The notes below the pieces were generated by a model. It searched no databases, had not been told where the DNA came from, and saw only the letters and a list, made by a program, of their open reading frames with translations. A program made the position numbers and the translations under genes. This document shows positions 55 through 7,102 of a stretch of DNA of 10,441 nucleotides, one piece after another (position 1 is the first letter of the stretch; every line of letters begins with the position of its first letter). Location: the IMG/VR virus record IMGVR_UViG_2681813269_000009; one strand, 5' to 3'. The DNA comes from a virus. Its lineage: Duplodnaviria > Heunggongvirae > Uroviricota > Caudoviricetes.

Positions 55-273
55 ATGGTTACATTATTTAGAAAAAAATATCCGCGAAAGAGTAGAACAA
101 CAGAATTCCTGTTTCTCATTCTGTTTATCGTGTTGATGACACCGATATCCCCGCTAATTTTTGTCTGGATAATCGGAAAAATAATTGAGCCAGTTATTGA
201 ATTGTATAACGACGTGGTATGGGCGTCATTCAACACACTGCACAATAAAATTAATCCGTATAAGGAAAGCTGA
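55..273 (+). CDS. Hypothetical small membrane protein (72 aa)
   Basis: ATG at 55 to TGA at 271-273, ending 1 nt before the next gene start. Hydrophobic stretch LFLILFIVLMTPISPLIFVWIIG. Upstream hairpin ccgcccgaaagggcgg (32-49) and only a weak SD. No family recognised. Confidence 0.3.
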   Translation: MVTLFRKKYPRKSRTTEFLFLILFIVLMTPISPLIFVWIIGKIIEPVIELYNDVVWASFNTLHNKINPYKES

Positions 274-274
274 T

Positions 275-640
275 ATGGCACTGACGAAAAAACAACGTGC
301 AGAACTGCGCATGAAGTTCGGTGGTCGCTGCGCTTATTGCGGCTGCGAACTTGGCGAAAAGTGGCATGCAGACCATGTAAAACCGGTCATTCGTTTTGAT
401 GGAAATATGCTTCACCAGGAACGTGACGATATATCCAACATGGTACCAGCATGCCACCCATGCAATCTGCACAAGCATTGCAGTAGCCTGGAAGATTATC
501 GACGAATTATCAGTGATGGTCGTCGTGAATTCCTTGCGTCCGGGAAAGGCAAAGCGCTGGTTCGTATGGGATTGGTTGAAATGAAATCTGACCCGGTTGT
601 GTTCTGGTTTGAAAAATATCAAGAAGGGGCTACGGCATGA
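275..640 (+). CDS. HNH endonuclease (121 aa)
   Basis: ATG at 275 with SD aaggaaag 7 nt upstream. Motifs CAYCGC ... HADHV ... N ... CHPCNLHKH match the CxxC/HxxH/N/CxxC HNH zinc-finger nuclease pattern. Start chosen at 275 rather than the in-frame ATG at 185. Confidence 0.8.
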   Translation: MALTKKQRAELRMKFGGRCAYCGCELGEKWHADHVKPVIRFDGNMLHQERDDISNMVPACHPCNLHKHCSSLEDYRRIISDGRREFLASGKGKALVRMGLVEMKSDPVVFWFEKYQEGATA

Positions 641-1302
641 CCACTATTACCAAAGAGCGACTGCAATGGCTGGCTAACATTTCTGGCCGCGATGATATTG
701 ACGATATAGACGGCGGTGAAATTCGTGAACTGGCGCTTATCGCTCTGGCATCACTGGAAGCAGAGCCTGTAGCGGAATGCATTGTTGAAGATGGGGGCAT
801 GTGTATTGACGGGTTCGGTGAGTATGTGGGTCACTCGCTGCCTGATGGAATGCATGAGCTTTATGCTGCCCCGCGAATGCGACAACCTGATGGATGGAAA
901 GCCGTAGCTGTAGCGTGGAAGGTGACGTTTACTCAAGTTGACCAGGAATCTAATACGTTCACTGCTATATATTTTGACAAAGCGGAAGTTGAGTGTTGGG
1001 TACGACTGCATAAAGCATGTGATTTTCGGGCAGATATAACACCGCTTTACGCAGCGCCGGCAGTGCCGGTTGCAGTAAACGACGACATGGCTTACGCATT
1101 CCATCACGCACTGTCAGATTCATCGCTTGGCTCTGATGAAATCGAAGAAATTAAAACCGGTTTGCGTGCTGCCTTTGCCAACGTCACTATCCAACCAGAG
1201 CCGATAGTGCCGGATGAAATCGGGCCAAACGATAGTAATACGTTTGATTATGTTGATGGCTGGAACGCCTGCCGCGCTGCCATGCTTAAGGGAGATAAAT
1301 AA
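637..1302 (+). CDS. Hypothetical phage protein, acidic (221 aa)
   Basis: ATGA overlap with the HNH stop (translational coupling). Long uninterrupted ORF, tightly packed in the operon. No family recognised. Confidence 0.7.
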   Translation: MTTITKERLQWLANISGRDDIDDIDGGEIRELALIALASLEAEPVAECIVEDGGMCIDGFGEYVGHSLPDGMHELYAAPRMRQPDGWKAVAVAWKVTFTQVDQESNTFTAIYFDKAEVECWVRLHKACDFRADITPLYAAPAVPVAVNDDMAYAFHHALSDSSLGSDEIEEIKTGLRAAFANVTIQPEPIVPDEIGPNDSNTFDYVDGWNACRAAMLKGDK

Positions 1303-1667
1303 TGATTAATCGAACCAAACTGGAGCACATTCTCGAATATGCCAGGCAGCAGAAATGTATTGGGCAACTTTGTAAAATTCCACCAGGAGATATGGTTGAA
1401 ATCGTGGAAATGGCCATGCGTAAGGCTGGCAACTCTCCGGTAGCTCCGGCTGGCTGGATAAGCTGTAGTGATGCAGTTCCTGCTGAATATTGCGATGTGA
1501 TTCTTCTCGATGATCTCGGGAATGTATTCCCCGGTTCCTGGGATAAGGTTTTTTGCCCCACTCGTGGCGGGAATAAGATGGCTTTTGTGGACAAAGACGG
1601 CGTTGAAGTAGAGAGCTCAACTCACTGGATGCCGCTACCGGAACCACCGCAGGAGGTGAATCAATGA
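1302..1667 (+). CDS. Hypothetical phage protein, possibly DUF551-like (121 aa)
   Basis: TAATG overlap with the preceding stop. SD aagggaga at 1288-1295. W/P-rich C-terminal region (WISCSDAVP ... THWMPLPEPP) recalled as typical of DUF551 nin-region proteins; family call is from memory. Confidence 0.65.
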   Translation: MINRTKLEHILEYARQQKCIGQLCKIPPGDMVEIVEMAMRKAGNSPVAPAGWISCSDAVPAEYCDVILLDDLGNVFPGSWDKVFCPTRGGNKMAFVDKDGVEVESSTHWMPLPEPPQEVNQ

Positions 1668-1747
1668 CCTGGCCTGAGGCATTCACCACGGTAGGAATTG
1701 CGATGGCGGTGGCGCTGGTGGTGTATTCGATTTGCCGCTGGGGATAA
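1664..1747 (+). CDS. Small hydrophobic peptide (27 aa), MTWPEAFTTVGIAMAVALVVYSICRWG
   Basis: ATGA overlap with the upstream stop (1665-1667). Single predicted TM helix. Below the 60-aa cutoff of the ORF track; found by reading the sequence. Confidence 0.4.
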   Translation: MTWPEAFTTVGIAMAVALVVYSICRWG

Positions 1748-1753
1748 AAACGG

Positions 1754-1782
1754 TTTGCGGGAAAAGGAGAGTTAAGTAGAAT
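1754..1782 (+). promoter_or_regulatory. Candidate sigma70 promoter for the hok mRNA
   Basis: -35 TTTGCG (1754-1759), 17-bp spacer, -10 TAGAAT (1777-1782). The predicted start at about 1789 coincides with the 5' fold-back element gggtgcttgagg (1789-1800). Confidence 0.4.
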
Positions 1783-1958
1783 TGCAGCGGGTGCTTGAGG
1801 CTATCTGTCTCAGGCATGAACACCAAAAGGCAGATAGAGAAAAGCCCCAGTTAACATTACGCGTCCGGCAAGACGCTTAACATTAATCTGAGGCTCAATC
1901 TATGAACGGCAAATCTAGGTTAGCCTCTTACGTGCCGAAAGGCAAGGAGAAGCAGGCT

Positions 1959-2114
1959 ATGAAGCAGCAAAAGGCGATGTTAATCGCCCTGATCGTCATC
2001 TGTTTAACCGTCATTGTGACGGCACTGGTAACGAGGAAAGACCTCTGCGAGGTACGAATTCGAACCGGCCAGACGGAGGTCGCTGTCTTCACAGCTTACG
2101 AACCTGAGGAGTAA
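1959..2114 (+). CDS. hokD: Hok/Gef-family type I toxin (51 aa membrane peptide)
   Basis: MKQQKAMLIALIVICLTVIVTALVTRKDLCEVRIRTGQTEVAVFTAYEPEE is the Hok/Gef signature and matches my recollection of E. coli HokD/RelF. SD aaggaga at 1944-1950. The in-frame ATG at 1902 gives an N-terminally extended, mok-like frame. Position is syntenic with hokD in Qin (hok, rem, ydfU, Q). Confidence 0.8.
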   Translation: MKQQKAMLIALIVICLTVIVTALVTRKDLCEVRIRTGQTEVAVFTAYEPEE

Positions 2115-2183
2115 GAGACCAGGCGGGGGAGAAATCCCTCGCCACCTCTGATGGGTCAGGCATCCTCAATGCACCCACACTTA

Positions 2184-2209
2184 ACCCGCTTCGGCGGGTT
2201 TTTGTTTTT
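2184..2209 (+). terminator. Rho-independent terminator of the hok transcript
   Basis: Stem acccgc (2184-2189), loop ttcg, stem gcgggt (2194-2199), followed by tttttgttttt. Confidence 0.65.
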
Positions 2210-2334
2210 ATTTTCAACGCGTTTGAAGTTTTAGATGGTGCCGGAATAGAATCAAAAATACTTAAGTAGCGCGCAGGGAGAAGAGGGATGGACCCCGAAC
2301 AGGGGAGTGCTATTTATCTGGAAGGATTCTGTTG

Positions 2335-2616
2335 ATGAAAATCGAAGAATTACGTGAAATTTTTAGTGAAGATGGCCTCTATACTGTGCGCGTTGAGAAT
2401 GGCGCTATTGTCAGCCACTGCCTTCCAGACTACACAATTCTGATAATTCAGCCGTCTTTGCCAGCAGGCACGGGCGGCGCTCTCACGCATTTAAATCTGA
2501 TTGGTACCAGCATCCCCCATGCACTGAAGAACAGGCCGAATGGCTCATTCAGTGTTACCGCAGGCGCGGATGCGAGGTTAAAAAAGCCCTTAGCCTCGAC
2601 TACCGTCACTGGATAA
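2335..2616 (+). CDS. Hypothetical protein (93 aa), at the rem position of Qin-like prophages
   Basis: ATG at 2335 with SD ggaagga at 2320-2326. Lies between hok and the DUF968 gene as rem does in Qin. Sequence not recognised, so the call rests on position only. Confidence 0.4.
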   Translation: MKIEELREIFSEDGLYTVRVENGAIVSHCLPDYTILIIQPSLPAGTGGALTHLNLIGTSIPHALKNRPNGSFSVTAGADARLKKPLASTTVTG

Positions 2617-2691: not shown

Positions 2692-3750
2692 GTGCGGGTA
2701 TTACTTCGACCTGTTCTGGTACCGGAACTCGGTCTGGTTATCGTTAAGCCAGGCCGTGAATCAATGTCAGCATTCCATAACGGCAGAATACTGGTGGAGC
2801 CGGAACCAAAAAGCATGCGTAATCTGCCGTCCGGGGTCGTTCCTGCCGCTCGCCAGCCGCTGGTGGAAGACAAAACATTGCTGCCGTTTTTCAGTAACGC
2901 ACGGGTGATTCGTGCTGCTGGTGGTGCTGGTGCATTGTCTGACTGGCTGTTGCGCCATATTAAATCCTGCCAGTGGCCACACGGCGATTATCATCACAGC
3001 GAAACCGTCATTCACCGTTATGGTACCGGCGCAATGGTGTTGTGCTGGCACTGCGACAACCAGCTGCGTGACCAGACATCCGAATCACTCGAGCAACTTG
3101 CTCATCAAAACCTGTCAGCATGGATGATTGACGTCATCGGTCACGCAATAAGCGGTACGCAGGAGCGTGAATTATCTCTGGCTGAATTATCCTGGTGGGC
3201 GGTCCGCAATCAGGTGGCGGACGCGCTACCGGAAGCGGTATTACGTCGTTCGCTGGGGTTGCGTGCGGAAAAAATTCGCTCTGTGTACAGTGAAAGCGAC
3301 ATCATACCGGGAGAGCAGACAGCCACCAGCATACTGAAGCAGCGCACAAAAAATATTGCGTTACTGCCTCACGTCCACCAGCAACAGAACCCACCACAGG
3401 AAAAGACGGTGGTCAGCATTGCCGTTGATCCGGAGTCACCGGCTCAGTATCTCCAGCGCCAGAAATCACAACGGGAAGAGATGCCTGTATACACGCGCTG
3501 GGTAAAAACGCAGAAATGCATGACGTGTGGCAATCAGGCAGATGATCCGCATCACATCATTGGTCATGGACTGGGAGGGATGGGAACAAAGGCTGATGAT
3601 TTGTTTGTTATTCCGTTATGCCGTAAATGCCGTAACGAACTACATGCCGGAGTAAAAGATTTTGAAGAGAAACACGGCAGTCAGCTGTTGTTGCTGATTC
3701 GTTTTTTAATGCACGCGAGAAATTCGGGTGTTCTGAAGTGGAAAGCATAA
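2692..3750 (+). CDS. DUF968 (YdfU-like) phage protein with C-terminal Cys/His zinc-finger-like motif (352 aa)
   Basis: GTG start at 2692 with SD ggagg at 2683-2687. C-terminal CMTCGN ... DPHHIIGHG ... CRKCRNELH motif. Size and position (between rem-like ORF and rusA/Q) match ydfU of Qin from memory. Confidence 0.7.
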   Translation: MRVLLRPVLVPELGLVIVKPGRESMSAFHNGRILVEPEPKSMRNLPSGVVPAARQPLVEDKTLLPFFSNARVIRAAGGAGALSDWLLRHIKSCQWPHGDYHHSETVIHRYGTGAMVLCWHCDNQLRDQTSESLEQLAHQNLSAWMIDVIGHAISGTQERELSLAELSWWAVRNQVADALPEAVLRRSLGLRAEKIRSVYSESDIIPGEQTATSILKQRTKNIALLPHVHQQQNPPQEKTVVSIAVDPESPAQYLQRQKSQREEMPVYTRWVKTQKCMTCGNQADDPHHIIGHGLGGMGTKADDLFVIPLCRKCRNELHAGVKDFEEKHGSQLLLLIRFLMHARNSGVLKWKA

Positions 3751-4131
3751 ATGACCGAGCGCATAGAATTTGTTTTACCTTACCCGCCGACGGTGAACAC
3801 TTACTGGCGTCGTCGTGGCAGCACATATTTTGTATCAAAAGCCGGGGAGCGTTATCGCCGGGCAGTGGCGCTTATTGTTCGCCAGCAGCGGCTGAAATTA
3901 AGCCTGTCCGGAAGGTTGGCAATAAAAATTATTGCAGAACCACCGGATAAGCGCCGCCGTGACCTGGACAATATTCTGAAAGCGCCGCTGGATGCGCTGA
4001 CGCATGCGGGGTTGCTAATGGACGATGAGCAGTTTGATGAAATCAATATCGTTCGTGGTCAGCCAGTATCTGGTGGACGTCTGGGGGTGAAGATTTACCC
4101 CATAATGCATGAAGAGCAGGTCAAAAAATGA
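3751..4131 (+). CDS. rusA: RusA-family Holliday junction resolvase (126 aa)
   Basis: Motifs PPTVNTYW, RRRDLDN and the acidic DDEQ region resemble E. coli RusA. Start abuts the upstream stop. SD ggaaag. Confidence 0.85.
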   Translation: MTERIEFVLPYPPTVNTYWRRRGSTYFVSKAGERYRRAVALIVRQQRLKLSLSGRLAIKIIAEPPDKRRRDLDNILKAPLDALTHAGLLMDDEQFDEINIVRGQPVSGGRLGVKIYPIMHEEQVKK

Positions 4132-4949
4132 AACTGGAAGATTTACCGAAATACTACTCCCCAAAATCCCCTTGCCTGACCGATGCATCGGCCTCAACGT
4201 CAAAAGATGCGCTGAGTATCACTGATGTGATGGCCGCGCAGGGCATGACACAGAATCGGGCTGAGATGGGGTTTTCTGCGTTCCTGGGGAAAATGGGCAT
4301 CAGTATGAATGACAGGGCGCGGGCAACAGAATTACTGGCAGATTATGCACTCAGTCGGTGCGATCGTGTGGCGGCGTTGAGAAAACTTCCGGCAGAAATA
4401 AAACCGGTAGTGATGCGCATTATGGCTTCGTACGCTTTTGAGGATTATGCCCGCAGCGCAGCGAGTAAAAAGCAGTGCCCTTGTTGCTATGGGGAAAAAT
4501 TTATTGAAAGCGTAGTTTTTACAAACAAGGTCCAGTATCCGGATGGTAAGCCGCCGGTATGGGCAAAGTGTACGAAAGGTGTGTATCCGTCTTACTGGGA
4601 AGAATGGAAAAAAGTCAGGGAGGTGGTAAAAGTTGCCTGTCCGGAGTGTGGCGGAAAGGGTGAGGTTTCCACCGCCTGTAAGGATTGCCGTGGGCGTGGT
4701 GTCGCCATTCATCGTGAAGAGTCGGTAAAACGTGGTATGCCTGTTATCAGAGACTGCCAGCGTTGTGGTGGTCGTGGCTATGAAAGACTACCATCAACGG
4801 AGGCATTTAATGCTATATGCGAGGTGACAAACCAGATAACACGCGCGTCATGGGAAAAAACAGTTAAGAAATTTTATGATGCGCTGGTGACCCGGTTTGA
4901 TATTGAAGAAGCATGGGCTGAGCGGCAGTTAAAAAAGGTAACTAGGTAA
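4128..4949 (+). CDS. Late-gene antitermination protein Q (273 aa)
   Basis: ATGA overlap with the rusA stop. Multiple CxxC pairs (CPCC, CPECGG, CKDCRG, CQRCGG) typical of zinc-binding Q proteins. Immediately followed by a promoter plus short-transcript terminator. Confidence 0.8.
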   Translation: MKLEDLPKYYSPKSPCLTDASASTSKDALSITDVMAAQGMTQNRAEMGFSAFLGKMGISMNDRARATELLADYALSRCDRVAALRKLPAEIKPVVMRIMASYAFEDYARSAASKKQCPCCYGEKFIESVVFTNKVQYPDGKPPVWAKCTKGVYPSYWEEWKKVREVVKVACPECGGKGEVSTACKDCRGRGVAIHREESVKRGMPVIRDCQRCGGRGYERLPSTEAFNAICEVTNQITRASWEKTVKKFYDALVTRFDIEEAWAERQLKKVTR

Positions 4950-5521: not shown

Positions 5522-6580
5522 ATGCTTAATACTGTAAAAATATCCAGTTGTGAGTTAATCAACGCCGACTGCCTGGAATTTATCCGGTCGTTACCCGAAA
5601 ATTCTGTTGACCTGATAGTCACGGACCCGCCGTACTTTAAAGTGAAGCCTGAGGGCTGGGATAACCAGTGGAAGGGCGACGATGATTACCTGAAGTGGCT
5701 GGACCAGTGTCTGGCGCAGTTCTGGCGGGTGCTGAAACCTGCCGGAAGTCTTTACCTGTTCTGTGGTCATCGCCTGGCATCTGATATCGAAATCATGATG
5801 CGTGAACGCTTCAGTGTGCTGAACCATATTATCTGGGCGAAGCCGTCCGGACGCTGGAACGGATGCAACAAGGAAAGCCTGCGGGCGTATTTCCCCGCCA
5901 CAGAGCGCATTCTGTTCGCGGAACATTATCAGGGGCCGTATCGTCCGAAAGATGCCGGGTATGCGGCGAAGGGCAGTGCACTGAAACAGCATGTGATGGC
6001 CCCGCTGATTTCTTACTTTCGTGATGCGCGAGCTGCCCTGGGGATAACGGCAAAACAGATTGCAGATGCCACAGGAAAGAAAAACATGGTGTCGCACTGG
6101 TTCAGTGCCGGTCAGTGGCAGTTGCCGAATGAAAGCGATTATCTGAAATTACAGGCGCTGTTTGCCCGGGTGGCAGAAGAGAAGCATCGGCGTGGTGAAC
6201 TGGAAAAGCTCCACCACCAGCTGGTGGATACGTATACCTCACTGAACCGGCAGTATGCGGAGCTGCTGAGTGAATATAAACATCTGCGGCGGTATTTTGG
6301 CGTGACGGTGCAGGTGCCGTATACCGATGTGTGGACGCATAAACCGGTGCAGTTCTATCCCGGGAAACATCCGTGCGAAAAACCGGCAGAAATGCTGCAG
6401 CAGATAATCAGCGCTAGCAGTCGTCCGGGTGACCTGATTGCAGATTTTTTCATGGGGTTGGGTTCGACAGTGAAAGCGGCACTGGCGCTCGGGCGTCGTG
6501 CAATTGGCGTTGAGCTGGAGACTGAACGTTTTGAGCAGACGGTTCGGGAAGTACAGGATTTAGTCAGCCAGAACGGATGA
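5522..6580 (+). CDS. DNA amino-methyltransferase (N6-adenine or N4-cytosine), orphan (352 aa)
   Basis: DPPY catalytic motif at aa 35-38 (nt 5624-5635) and a C-terminal FxGxG AdoMet motif (DFFMGLGST), the order seen in beta-class amino-MTases. No restriction endonuclease partner in the window. Confidence 0.85.
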   Translation: MLNTVKISSCELINADCLEFIRSLPENSVDLIVTDPPYFKVKPEGWDNQWKGDDDYLKWLDQCLAQFWRVLKPAGSLYLFCGHRLASDIEIMMRERFSVLNHIIWAKPSGRWNGCNKESLRAYFPATERILFAEHYQGPYRPKDAGYAAKGSALKQHVMAPLISYFRDARAALGITAKQIADATGKKNMVSHWFSAGQWQLPNESDYLKLQALFARVAEEKHRRGELEKLHHQLVDTYTSLNRQYAELLSEYKHLRRYFGVTVQVPYTDVWTHKPVQFYPGKHPCEKPAEMLQQIISASSRPGDLIADFFMGLGSTVKAALALGRRAIGVELETERFEQTVREVQDLVSQNG

Positions 6581-6620: not shown

Positions 6621-6696
6621 GGCCCTTTAGCTCAGTGGTGAGAGCGAGCGACTCATAATCGCCAGGTCGCTGGTTCAAATCCAGCAAGGGCCACCA
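6621..6696 (+). tRNA. tRNA-Ile2 (anticodon CAT, lysidine type; Met not excluded)
   Basis: Hand-folded cloverleaf: acceptor ggccctt / aagggcc, anticodon loop ctCATaa, T-loop ttcaaat, 3' CCA. Closely resembles E. coli ileX and the ileZ of Stx phages, from memory. Confidence 0.8.
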
Positions 6697-6703
6697 TCAC
6701 ATA

Positions 6704-6780
6704 CCGCCATTAGCTCATCAGGAAAGAGCGCCAGCCTTCGAAGCTGGCTGCGCGGGGTTCAAGTCCCCGATGGCGGTCCA
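6704..6780 (+). tRNA. tRNA-Arg (anticodon TCG)
   Basis: Acceptor ccgccat / atggcgg, D-stem gctc / gagc, anticodon stem ccagc / gctgg with loop ctTCGaa, T-arm cgggg-ttcaagt-ccccg, discriminator t, CCA. Confidence 0.75.
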
Positions 6781-6793
6781 TTATCTGCATCAT

Positions 6794-6833
6794 GCGTTGT
6801 TAGCTCAGCCGGACAGAGCAATTGCCTTCTAAG
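6794..6833 (+). tRNA. tRNA-Arg (TCT), 5' part only, truncated by assembly gap
   Basis: Identical to the first 40 nt of the complete tRNA at 7103-7179, then runs into N at 6834. Confidence 0.5.
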
Positions 6834-6982
6834 NNNNNNNNNNNNNNNNNNNNNNNNNNNNNNNNNNNNNNNNNNNNNNNNNNNNNNNNNNNNNNNNNNN
6901 NNNNNNNNNNNNNNNNNNNNNNNNNNNNNNNNNNNNNNNNNNNNNNNNNNNNNNNNNNNNNNNNNNNNNNNNNNNNNNNNNN
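6834..6982. other. Assembly gap (149 N)
   Basis: Run of N. Confidence 1.
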
Positions 6983-7002
6983 AAATCCAGCAAGGGCCAC
7001 CA
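6983..7002 (+). tRNA. 3' end fragment of a second tRNA-Ile2 copy
   Basis: aaatccagcaagggccacca is identical to 6677-6696 and emerges from the gap. Confidence 0.5.
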
Positions 7003-7009
7003 TCACAAA

Positions 7010-7089
7010 CCGCCATTAGCTTATCAGGAAGAGCAGACGACACGATAACAGGGTTGTTGGTGCGGGGGCGGGTCCCCGATGGCGGTCCA
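7010..7089 (+). pseudogene. Degenerate tRNA-Arg-like element
   Basis: Keeps the acceptor stem (ccgccat / atggcgg), a D-arm and 3' CCA of the Arg-TCG tRNA. The anticodon and T arms are replaced by gacgacacgataacagggttgttggtgcgggggcgggt, which has no canonical 7-nt anticodon loop or TTC T-loop. Confidence 0.45.
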
Positions 7090-7102
7090 TTATCGGTATT
7101 CA

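Follow-up and report, generated by a model that had tools for sequence, protein, structure and literature searches.

Does the 27-codon open reading frame (ORF) that ends just upstream of a hok/sok-type locus in a lambdoid prophage encode a peptide, and does that peptide belong to hok/sok? The locus lies in a 10,441-nucleotide stretch of Caudoviricetes DNA (IMG/VR record IMGVR_UViG_2681813269_000009), the whole of which we call the window and in whose coordinates positions are given. The ORF (1664..1747, plus strand; hereafter the small ORF) runs from an ATG at 1664 to a TAA at 1745-1747 and, as read from the sequence and the ORF list, specifies the peptide MTWPEAFTTVGIAMAVALVVYSICRWG. An earlier note on this DNA had described it as an unannotated hydrophobic frame with one transmembrane-like helix, coupled by an ATGA overlap to the preceding ORF and placed just upstream of hok. 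Comparison across genomes leads us to conclude that the small ORF is very probably a real gene for a single-helix membrane peptide, and indicates that it is independent of hok/sok, which is one of several downstream neighbours.

The small ORF starts within an ATGA (1664-1667) that also holds the TGA (1665-1667) of a 121-aa ORF (1302..1667). Buried in the end of that upstream gene is a Shine-Dalgarno (SD) sequence, AGGAGGTGA (1651-1659), which occurs once in the 10.4-kb window, against 0.07 occurrences expected from shuffles, and whose GGAGG core is spaced 7 nt from the ATG of the small ORF. A 27-codon ORF is uninformative by itself, given that 27 ORFs of at least 20 aa overlap positions 1000..2600, and because it is unremarkable the case for the small ORF rests on cross-genome comparison. 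Two other explanations were tried and rejected. A programmed -1 frameshift joining the helix to the upstream protein finds no slippery heptamer in any junction class and no in-frame fusion among 75 upstream proteins, and an RNA element at the small ORF does not fit, with no Rfam family over 1664..1747 and an RNA fold z-score of 0.11.

Copies of the small ORF were collected from viral contigs with a pattern made from the back-translated first seven codons, which returned at least 120 stretches, and with a second, slightly wider pattern, which returned 122 loci; the two search seeds had codons W3-P4-E5 in common as fixed positions, to which the first added M-T and A6. Family members make up 115 of 126 pattern matches, and 112 of these 115 have exactly 27 codons, with 51 distinct nucleotide sequences among the matches listed. 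The start overlaps the upstream stop codon in 116 of the 122 loci (as ATGA in 113 and as a 1-nt overlap, TGATG or TAATG, in 3), and at least four unrelated upstream C-terminal modules precede it (...PEPPQEVNQ, ...NGLISVEDILR, ...NIEQKVNQ and ...AAMLKKKGMNQ). An SD-like GGAGG or GGAGGA is present in each of the three main junction classes despite the differing upstream coding sequence. Downstream, the 122 loci continue into a hok promoter at a fixed distance of 6 nt (60 loci), a hairpin and T-run terminator (33), a small gene (ORF4) followed by xis/int (4), other sequence (21) or the contig end (4), and the only block common to all contexts extends from approximately the SD and ATG through the stop codon. 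In phage 933W the gene ahead of the 27-codon frame, which there reads MTWPEAFANVGTVMAVVLVVYSICRWR, is another one, L0139; an ATGA joins the two here too, and nucleotide homology to the window reaches back no further than the SD, about 15 nt ahead of the ATG. Other copies read MNWPEAFTAVGVAIAVAFILYSLFRWG in VT1-Sakai and BP-4795, MTWPEAFTTVGVVMAVAFAVYSVCRWG in Av-05 (Vequintavirinae), with many synonymous differences, MSWPDAIVTLGMVFAAAFVVYSICRWG in PhiR12_1, and MSWPEAFAIVGVAMAIAAIFIFWG, of 24 aa, in the P1-like SJ46; divergent members found by tblastn, at 59-67% identity, retain 27 codons. The recurrence of the ATGA or 1-nt overlap behind unrelated C-termini supports the coupling to the preceding ORF that the earlier note had proposed. 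Taken together, the compared loci show that SD, ATG, 27 codons and stop make up a self-contained cassette, which forms the last or a late cistron of Ea22/DUF551-type gene strings in lambdoid prophages, P1-like phage-plasmids and some Vequintavirinae.

The family copies vary in a manner expected of a coding sequence. Third codon positions are approximately 2.5 times more variable than first and second positions, and the pairwise ratio of non-synonymous to synonymous differences (pN/pS) is 0.36 in frame versus 0.96 and 1.29 in the other forward frames. For 55 unique intact copies placed on a neighbour-joining tree, Fitch parsimony was used to count substitution events over codons 8-27, which the search pattern had left free. 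This gave 73 synonymous, 77 non-synonymous and 0 stop-creating events, compared to 47.6, 96.4 and 5.9, respectively, when event positions were randomised, and 0 of 5000 randomisations reached 73 synonymous events.

The peptide itself has the size and predicted helix of a small single-pass membrane protein, with 27 aa, one hydrophobic helix of bilayer length, and W3 and W26 flanking the core. Kyte-Doolittle hydropathy over residues 7-24 averages 2.13 in the window peptide and 2.04-2.44 across six divergent members, in keeping with one transmembrane helix. The ATGA overlap, the hydrophobic 27-aa frame and the helix-like segment are all found where the earlier note had placed them; the distance from W3 to W26, 23 residues, is that expected of interfacial anchors. 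In the N-terminal motif (Table 1) W3, P4 and A6 show zero non-synonymous events and E5 changes only to D. This invariance is partly apparent because the search seeds fixed these codons; copies found independently by tblastn retain W-P-[ED]-A, and the full motif recurs in viral contigs of high G+C content. Within the remainder of the peptide G11, A15, L18, Y21, S22 and W26 have 0-1 non-synonymous events each and T9, V10, M14, V16 and V19 have 5-9 each. Residues G11, A15, L18 and S22 fall within 0-60 degrees of the helical wheel, forming one conserved stripe of mostly small residues, and the helix contains an alternating G-x-A-x-A-x-A pattern. The presence of E5 on one side of the helix and R25 on the other suggests an N-out/C-in topology, an assignment based on the positive-inside rule and the Pf3 coat protein.

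We think it probable, on the strength of these comparisons, that the small ORF is a microgene for a single-pass inner-membrane peptide whose translation is coupled within an early operon and which acts via helix packing. The small ORF would be co-transcribed with the upstream genes in a delayed-early operon, here in the nin region upstream of Q and elsewhere in the exo-xis region beside xis/int, and would be translated by termination-reinitiation at the ATGA, aided by the strong SD. The peptide would then insert into the membrane in a manner similar to Pf3 coat, with its acidic tail MTWPEA outside and its RWG end inside, and the G11-A15-L18-S22 stripe would pack against other copies of the peptide or against a helix of a host inner-membrane protein during phage development. 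A role in phage development rather than in lysogenic conversion is suggested because the small ORF has no promoter of its own, because the operons are repressed in lysogens, and because it is present in Vequintavirinae, a subfamily of virulent phages.

Several points weigh against this reading. The topology, the operon timing and the helix-packing action are inferred. Selection is moderate (omega, the ratio of non-synonymous to synonymous rates, is approximately 0.4-0.5), the retrieval patterns over the first seven codons bias N-terminal conservation, and a tree of intact copies only, which also ignores recombination, biases the stop counts. Variability along the helix is also period-2 (power at 160 degrees exceeds that at 100 degrees), so the single-stripe interpretation is not unique. 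Broken copies exist: that of Shigella phage POCJ13 (1501..1584 of the fetched stretch) carries TGG to TAG at codon 3 (W3 amber), that of E. coli EC-16-526 has a 1-nt deletion in codon 2, and there are a few further stop-loss or rearranged copies. We note that the W3 amber allele of POCJ13 leaves the upstream stop codon intact. Finally, the synonymous fraction is 0.47 in the antisense frame with the same wobble position versus 0.49 in the forward frame, and the synonymous excess alone cannot tell these two frames apart. For this reason the conservativeness of the replacements was scored too. Replacements average a BLOSUM62 score of +0.30 in the forward frame (null -0.32 +/- 0.16, P=0.0005) and -0.5 in that antisense frame (P=0.93). 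The two frames are thus separated only by this conservativeness test and by the start, SD and stop architecture. An antisense gene was rejected on these grounds, as replacements there are not conservative and the antisense frame has neither a start nor a stop inside the conserved block. In the record of Stx2 converting phage I (AP004402.1) a 249-aa 'ORF-38' is annotated on the opposite strand (716..1465 (-) of the fetched stretch), where it covers the small ORF together with the hok promoter and leader and the end of the upstream gene; this is probably a spurious antisense call. Overall, the comparison indicates that the amino-acid sequence of the small ORF is under purifying selection. Conservation of the frame across homologous prophages, whose absence the earlier note had named as one result that would refute its proposal, is found: the length is kept, synonymous changes are in excess, and replacements are conservative in this frame only.

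The same data bear on two readings in which the peptide itself would not matter. One is that the small ORF is not a gene, the open frame being a fortuitous feature of an 84-bp block that is conserved by recent descent or as a DNA linker for recombination. Short conserved sequences do mark module boundaries in lambdoid mosaics, identity exceeds 90% for most copies, both antisense frames 0 and 1 are largely open, and standard pipelines do not call the ORF. Against it stand the excess variability of third positions, the absence of stop-creating substitutions from codons 8-27 among 60 unique copies (5.9 expected), replacements that are conservative in one frame specifically, the retention of 27 codons in divergent copies, and a conserved block that begins at the SD/ATG and ends at the stop codon; we regard this reading as highly improbable. 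The other is that the ORF is translated as a spacer for the benefit of the operon, its peptide being irrelevant; for example, ribosomes might be carried up to the terminator or hok promoter, Rho be prevented from acting, or the level of read-through into hok be set. The near-universal overlap with the upstream stop, the conserved SD, and the position of the ORF end, which falls 6 nt short of the hok -35 hexamer or immediately ahead of a terminator, would all suit such a role. A spacer would not keep its amino-acid sequence, however, and the conservative replacements and synonymous excess, the fixed length of 27 codons, and the retention of MTWPEAFTTVG with other codons in a contig of 71% G+C make this very unlikely.

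The hok/sok-type locus downstream is complete (Table 1). The Rfam sok model matches 1789..1964 (112 bits), which places the 5' end of hok mRNA at approximately 1789, 42 nt beyond the small ORF, and the end of the small ORF at 1747 precedes even the inferred hok -35 hexamer. By homology with the annotation of 933W, Sok antisense RNA would sit at approximately 1840-1910 on the minus strand. In many E. coli hokD loci homology to the window starts only at about 1742 or 1769, so that the hok cassette shares with the small ORF only the last six bases of the latter. The hokD locus of E. coli AR_0114 (NZ_CP021732.1; 1100..1560 of the fetched stretch) keeps the ACGATGA junction, and the body of the small ORF is replaced by an AT-rich insert whose product, a two-helix protein of 60 aa (MKNALQFLFVAFWLFVSC...CIEYWR), has a separate SD; of the small ORF only a decayed piece of the 3' half (..AIGLVGYLLCR..) is left, still abutting the hok promoter. 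Because AR_0114 keeps the junction and the remnant around a replaced ORF, the junction between small ORF and hok is old and common, yet the two modules are separable, and the slot in AR_0114 seems to be a collector of small membrane-protein genes. That the small ORF is part of the hok mRNA or of a hok leader is excluded by the coordinates and by hok loci that lack it. Consequently, the location just upstream of hok given in the earlier note is correct, but it provides no functional clue, as about half of the copies have no hok downstream. In the window the upstream operon and hok have no terminator between them; therefore, read-through from the early operon could give 5'-extended hok transcripts on induction.

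The proximity to hok invites a further reading, in which induction yields a type I-like toxin or lysis helper that damages the inner membrane by depolarising or perturbing it, perhaps in concert with Hok. The peptide is small and very hydrophobic, with small residues (G11, A13, A15 and A17) as in oligomerising peptides; the junction with the hok promoter is fixed at 6 nt in 60 of the 122 loci, and a repressed early operon would make toxicity tolerable. In addition, HokW aids lysis and phage release after mitomycin C (PMC8621323). On the other side, a consensus scan of 1200..2400, of a kind that weak promoters may escape, detected no promoter-like site overlapping the small ORF on either strand and only one site in all, at 2223, and no RNA family covers the ORF, so that the antisense RNA of a type I locus is not found there. 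The strong, unstructured SD and coupled translation contrast with the sequestered SD typical of type I toxins. A Pfam scan to E=10 gave only DUF883_C (0.042) and PTR2 (0.13), both far below cut-offs, and no match to Hok_Gef (PF01848), and the peptide has 27 aa versus approximately 50 aa in the Hok/Gef family. Roughly half of the loci with the small ORF are without hok, hok also occurs without the small ORF, and the small ORF lies upstream of Q, outside the lysis cassette. We consider a toxin or lysis helper unlikely.

Among 5426 complete E. coli genomes, 1726 (approximately a third) carry the small ORF, with up to 7 copies per genome, and 164 of its places in these genomes are on plasmids of about 95-100 kb. 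Carriers include the Shiga toxin (Stx) phages 933W, Sp5/VT2-Sakai, VT1-Sakai and BP-4795. Among GTDB species representatives, a strict fixed-length pattern, which would miss variants such as that of SJ46, matches E. coli and Shigella flexneri. A 431-bp contig, NZ_JPLE01000323.1 ('Xanthomonas pisi DSM 18956'), also matches with an E. coli-type small ORF, most likely as a result of contamination by E. coli or coliphage DNA. In Av-05 (KM190144.1, 121 kb) the small ORF (2501..2584 of the fetched stretch) lies within an Ea22/EaA-like gene string, and three further large phages of 77-134 kb, TH18, 24-2-1 and 19-1-2 (taxonomy unchecked), also carry such a string with the small ORF; judged by these four phages, Ea22/EaA accessory modules are exchanged beyond temperate lambdoid phages.

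A scan for the same seven residues encoded by G/C-ending codons found 7 places in the whole viral collection, 4 of which are hydrophobic ORFs of 27-50 codons on contigs of 60-71% G+C. Short hydrophobic ORFs starting with MTWPEAF occur on the IMG/VR contigs that we label L142 (G+C fraction 0.71), L144/L054, L065 and L106, some of them overlapping an upstream stop codon. The L142 copy, MTWPEAFTTVGLAFAA..., is identical to the window peptide at 13 of 16 N-terminal residues with different codon usage. Searches of the neighbours of these relatives gave no informative PHROG context. The high-GC ORFs suggest a wider family. A bolder proposal, which we put forward as doubtful, is that a broad, so far unrecognised microprotein family, built of an M-T-W-P-E-A-F 'hook' and one helix, takes in phages of 60-71% G+C as well as the lambdoid, P1-like and Vequintavirinae phages of E. 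coli, and that the near-invariant, extracytoplasmic hook and the small-residue stripe bind one conserved host inner-membrane machine early in infection. If true, this would be a new mechanism of host takeover or exclusion. In a narrower variant of this proposal, the peptide would directly modulate Hok at the protein level.

The earlier note's description of the frame as unannotated applies to RefSeq/PGAP and to the twelve phage records inspected (among them 933W, Stx2 phage I, vB_EcoM-606R7, ArgO145, VT1-Sakai, BP-4795, Av-05, PhiR12_1, PhiR5_1, POCJ13 and SJ46), none of which annotates the small ORF, but not to GenBank as a whole, where a few entries hold exact copies as 'hypothetical protein', 'prophage protein' or 'bacteriophage protein'. 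Because the former records omit it, the small ORF is probably missing from most analyses built on RefSeq or phage annotation. No significant or consistent match was obtained in Pfam, NCBIfam, PHROGs (searched twice, also with divergent and N-extended forms of the peptide), PADLOC or PDB sequences, and the peptide string was not found in the literature searched. The small ORF is absent from the supplements of the small-gene catalogue of enterohaemorrhagic E. coli Sakai, a ribosome-profiling catalogue limited to ORFs of at least 30 aa, and is unmentioned in the consulted section of the hokW-sokW paper and in the ea22 paper, the CFT073 Ribo-seq preprint and a phage small-protein review. Being conserved, coupled and only 27 aa long, it offers a clean test case for microprotein annotation; it is also a candidate for a membrane effector expressed early in phages that drive the release of Shiga toxin when induced, and its independence corrects the tempting assignment to the hok/sok module. 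Its wide occurrence in phages of pathogenic E. coli is cleanly supported; such microproteins are expected, and the function is a guess.

Table 1 Features of the small ORF and of the surrounding window.
Feature	Position	Strand	Basis or remark
DUF4014	55..273	+ (chain)	Pfam
HNH	275..640	+ (chain)	Pfam
Ea22-like, 221 aa	637..1302	+ (chain)	Pfam
DUF551, 121 aa, upstream cistron, last large chain member	1302..1667	+	Pfam, E=3.4e-19
Shine-Dalgarno AGGAGGTGA	1651..1659	+	Within final codons of DUF551 gene; sole copy in window
ATGA start/stop overlap, putative termination-reinitiation junction	1664..1667	+	Overlap recurs in family loci
27-codon gene MTWPEAFTTVGIAMAVALVVYSICRWG and TAA	1664..1747	+	Frame conservation, selection tests, many contexts
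Codons 2-7, T-W-P-E-A-F, near-invariant N-terminal motif, predicted short extramembrane tail	1667..1684	+	
Codons 7-24, predicted hydrophobic transmembrane core	1682..1735	+	Hydropathy, per-codon events
Inferred hok promoter, outside small ORF	-35 TTTGCG 1754-1759, 17-nt spacer, -10 TAGAAT 1777-1782	+	Read from the sequence; below promoter-scan threshold
hok/sok-type locus, complete	1789..2200	+	mok 1902..2114, hok 1959..2114, terminator hairpin 2183-2200
DUF968	2692..3750		Pfam; downstream of hok/sok
RusA	3751..4131		Pfam
Antiterminator Q	4128..4949		Pfam
DNA methylase	5522..6580		Pfam
tRNA-Met/Arg/Arg cluster	6621..7179		
Insertion-sequence-type transposase ORF (rve integrase core and HTH_21)	8416..9234	-	Pfam

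The surroundings of the small ORF correspond to the nin-type region of a lambdoid prophage. Genes of the upstream chain overlap or abut at each junction (a 1-nt gap at 273/275, ATGA at 637-640, TAATG at 1302 and ATGA at 1664), and the small ORF is a coupled cistron at the 3' end of this Ea22/DUF551-type string; in database records the upstream proteins are labelled Ea22, EaA or DUF551. The 75 distinct upstream proteins in the 122 loci combine Ea22/EaA/DUF551 segments in many orders, as extreme mosaics that range in length from 46 to 301 aa, with recurring segments such as IALASLEAEP, DGWNACRAAML, WMPLPEPPQEV and KLPDKAMDYLERNGL. Past the tRNAs the late region looks disrupted by an insertion sequence, two Rfam matches to the small RNA STnc100 (8005..8194 and 9474..9662; 124 and 71 bits) lie either side of the transposase ORF, and no stx gene was noticed downstream of the tRNA cluster in the window.

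How does the small ORF compare with known systems? It does not resemble a holin, antiholin or spanin gene in its position, which is 2.4 kb upstream of Q among nin/ea-type genes and, in other phages, beside xis/int. Nor does it resemble a moron: the scan found no promoter of its own, for which there is no room because the start overlaps the upstream stop in nearly all loci, and a terminator follows in only the 33 loci noted above. With Hok/Gef and other type I toxins (Hok, Ibs, ShoB, DinQ and TisB) it shares a small hydrophobic membrane peptide, a prophage location and adjacency to hok/sok; it differs in having no antisense RNA, own promoter, mok-like leader or fold-back, in its exposed SD and coupled translation, and in lying outside the hok mRNA. 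The Pf3 major coat protein, of 44 aa, adopts an N-out/C-in topology by YidC-dependent insertion. The peptide resembles it in its short acidic N-tail and one helix, in carrying a basic residue together with Trp at the C-terminal interface, and in lacking a signal peptide, but it is not a filamentous-phage virion protein, it has no sequence similarity to Pf3 coat, and its topology is a prediction.

T4 Imm and DicB are phage or prophage proteins that act in superinfection exclusion or modulate host membrane proteins, DicB (from a cryptic prophage) acting on ManYZ. Both are larger than the small-ORF peptide and without homology to it, and DicB is soluble; the likeness is that of a small phage product expected at the inner membrane, for which an early operon and presence in virulent-type phages would fit a role in infection. 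Closest in form are the small inner-membrane proteins of E. coli, KdpF (29 aa), CydX (37 aa), MgtS (31 aa), AcrZ (49 aa) and PmrR (29 aa), which bind larger membrane proteins, KdpF and CydX being cistrons within the operons of their partners. The small ORF differs from these in being phage-borne rather than part of the chromosomal core, in having no membrane-protein partner in the same operon (the upstream DUF551/Ea22-like proteins are soluble), and in its lack of sequence similarity, the best NCBIfam match being KdpF at E=0.024 and 14.7 bits versus a cut-off of 26.85. It is similar to them in size, in its one hydrophobic helix with one conserved face, in having no catalytic potential, in being embedded in an operon, and in being of a kind often missed by annotation. 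Judged by these likenesses, the small ORF is an as yet unnamed addition to the small phage-encoded single-helix membrane proteins.

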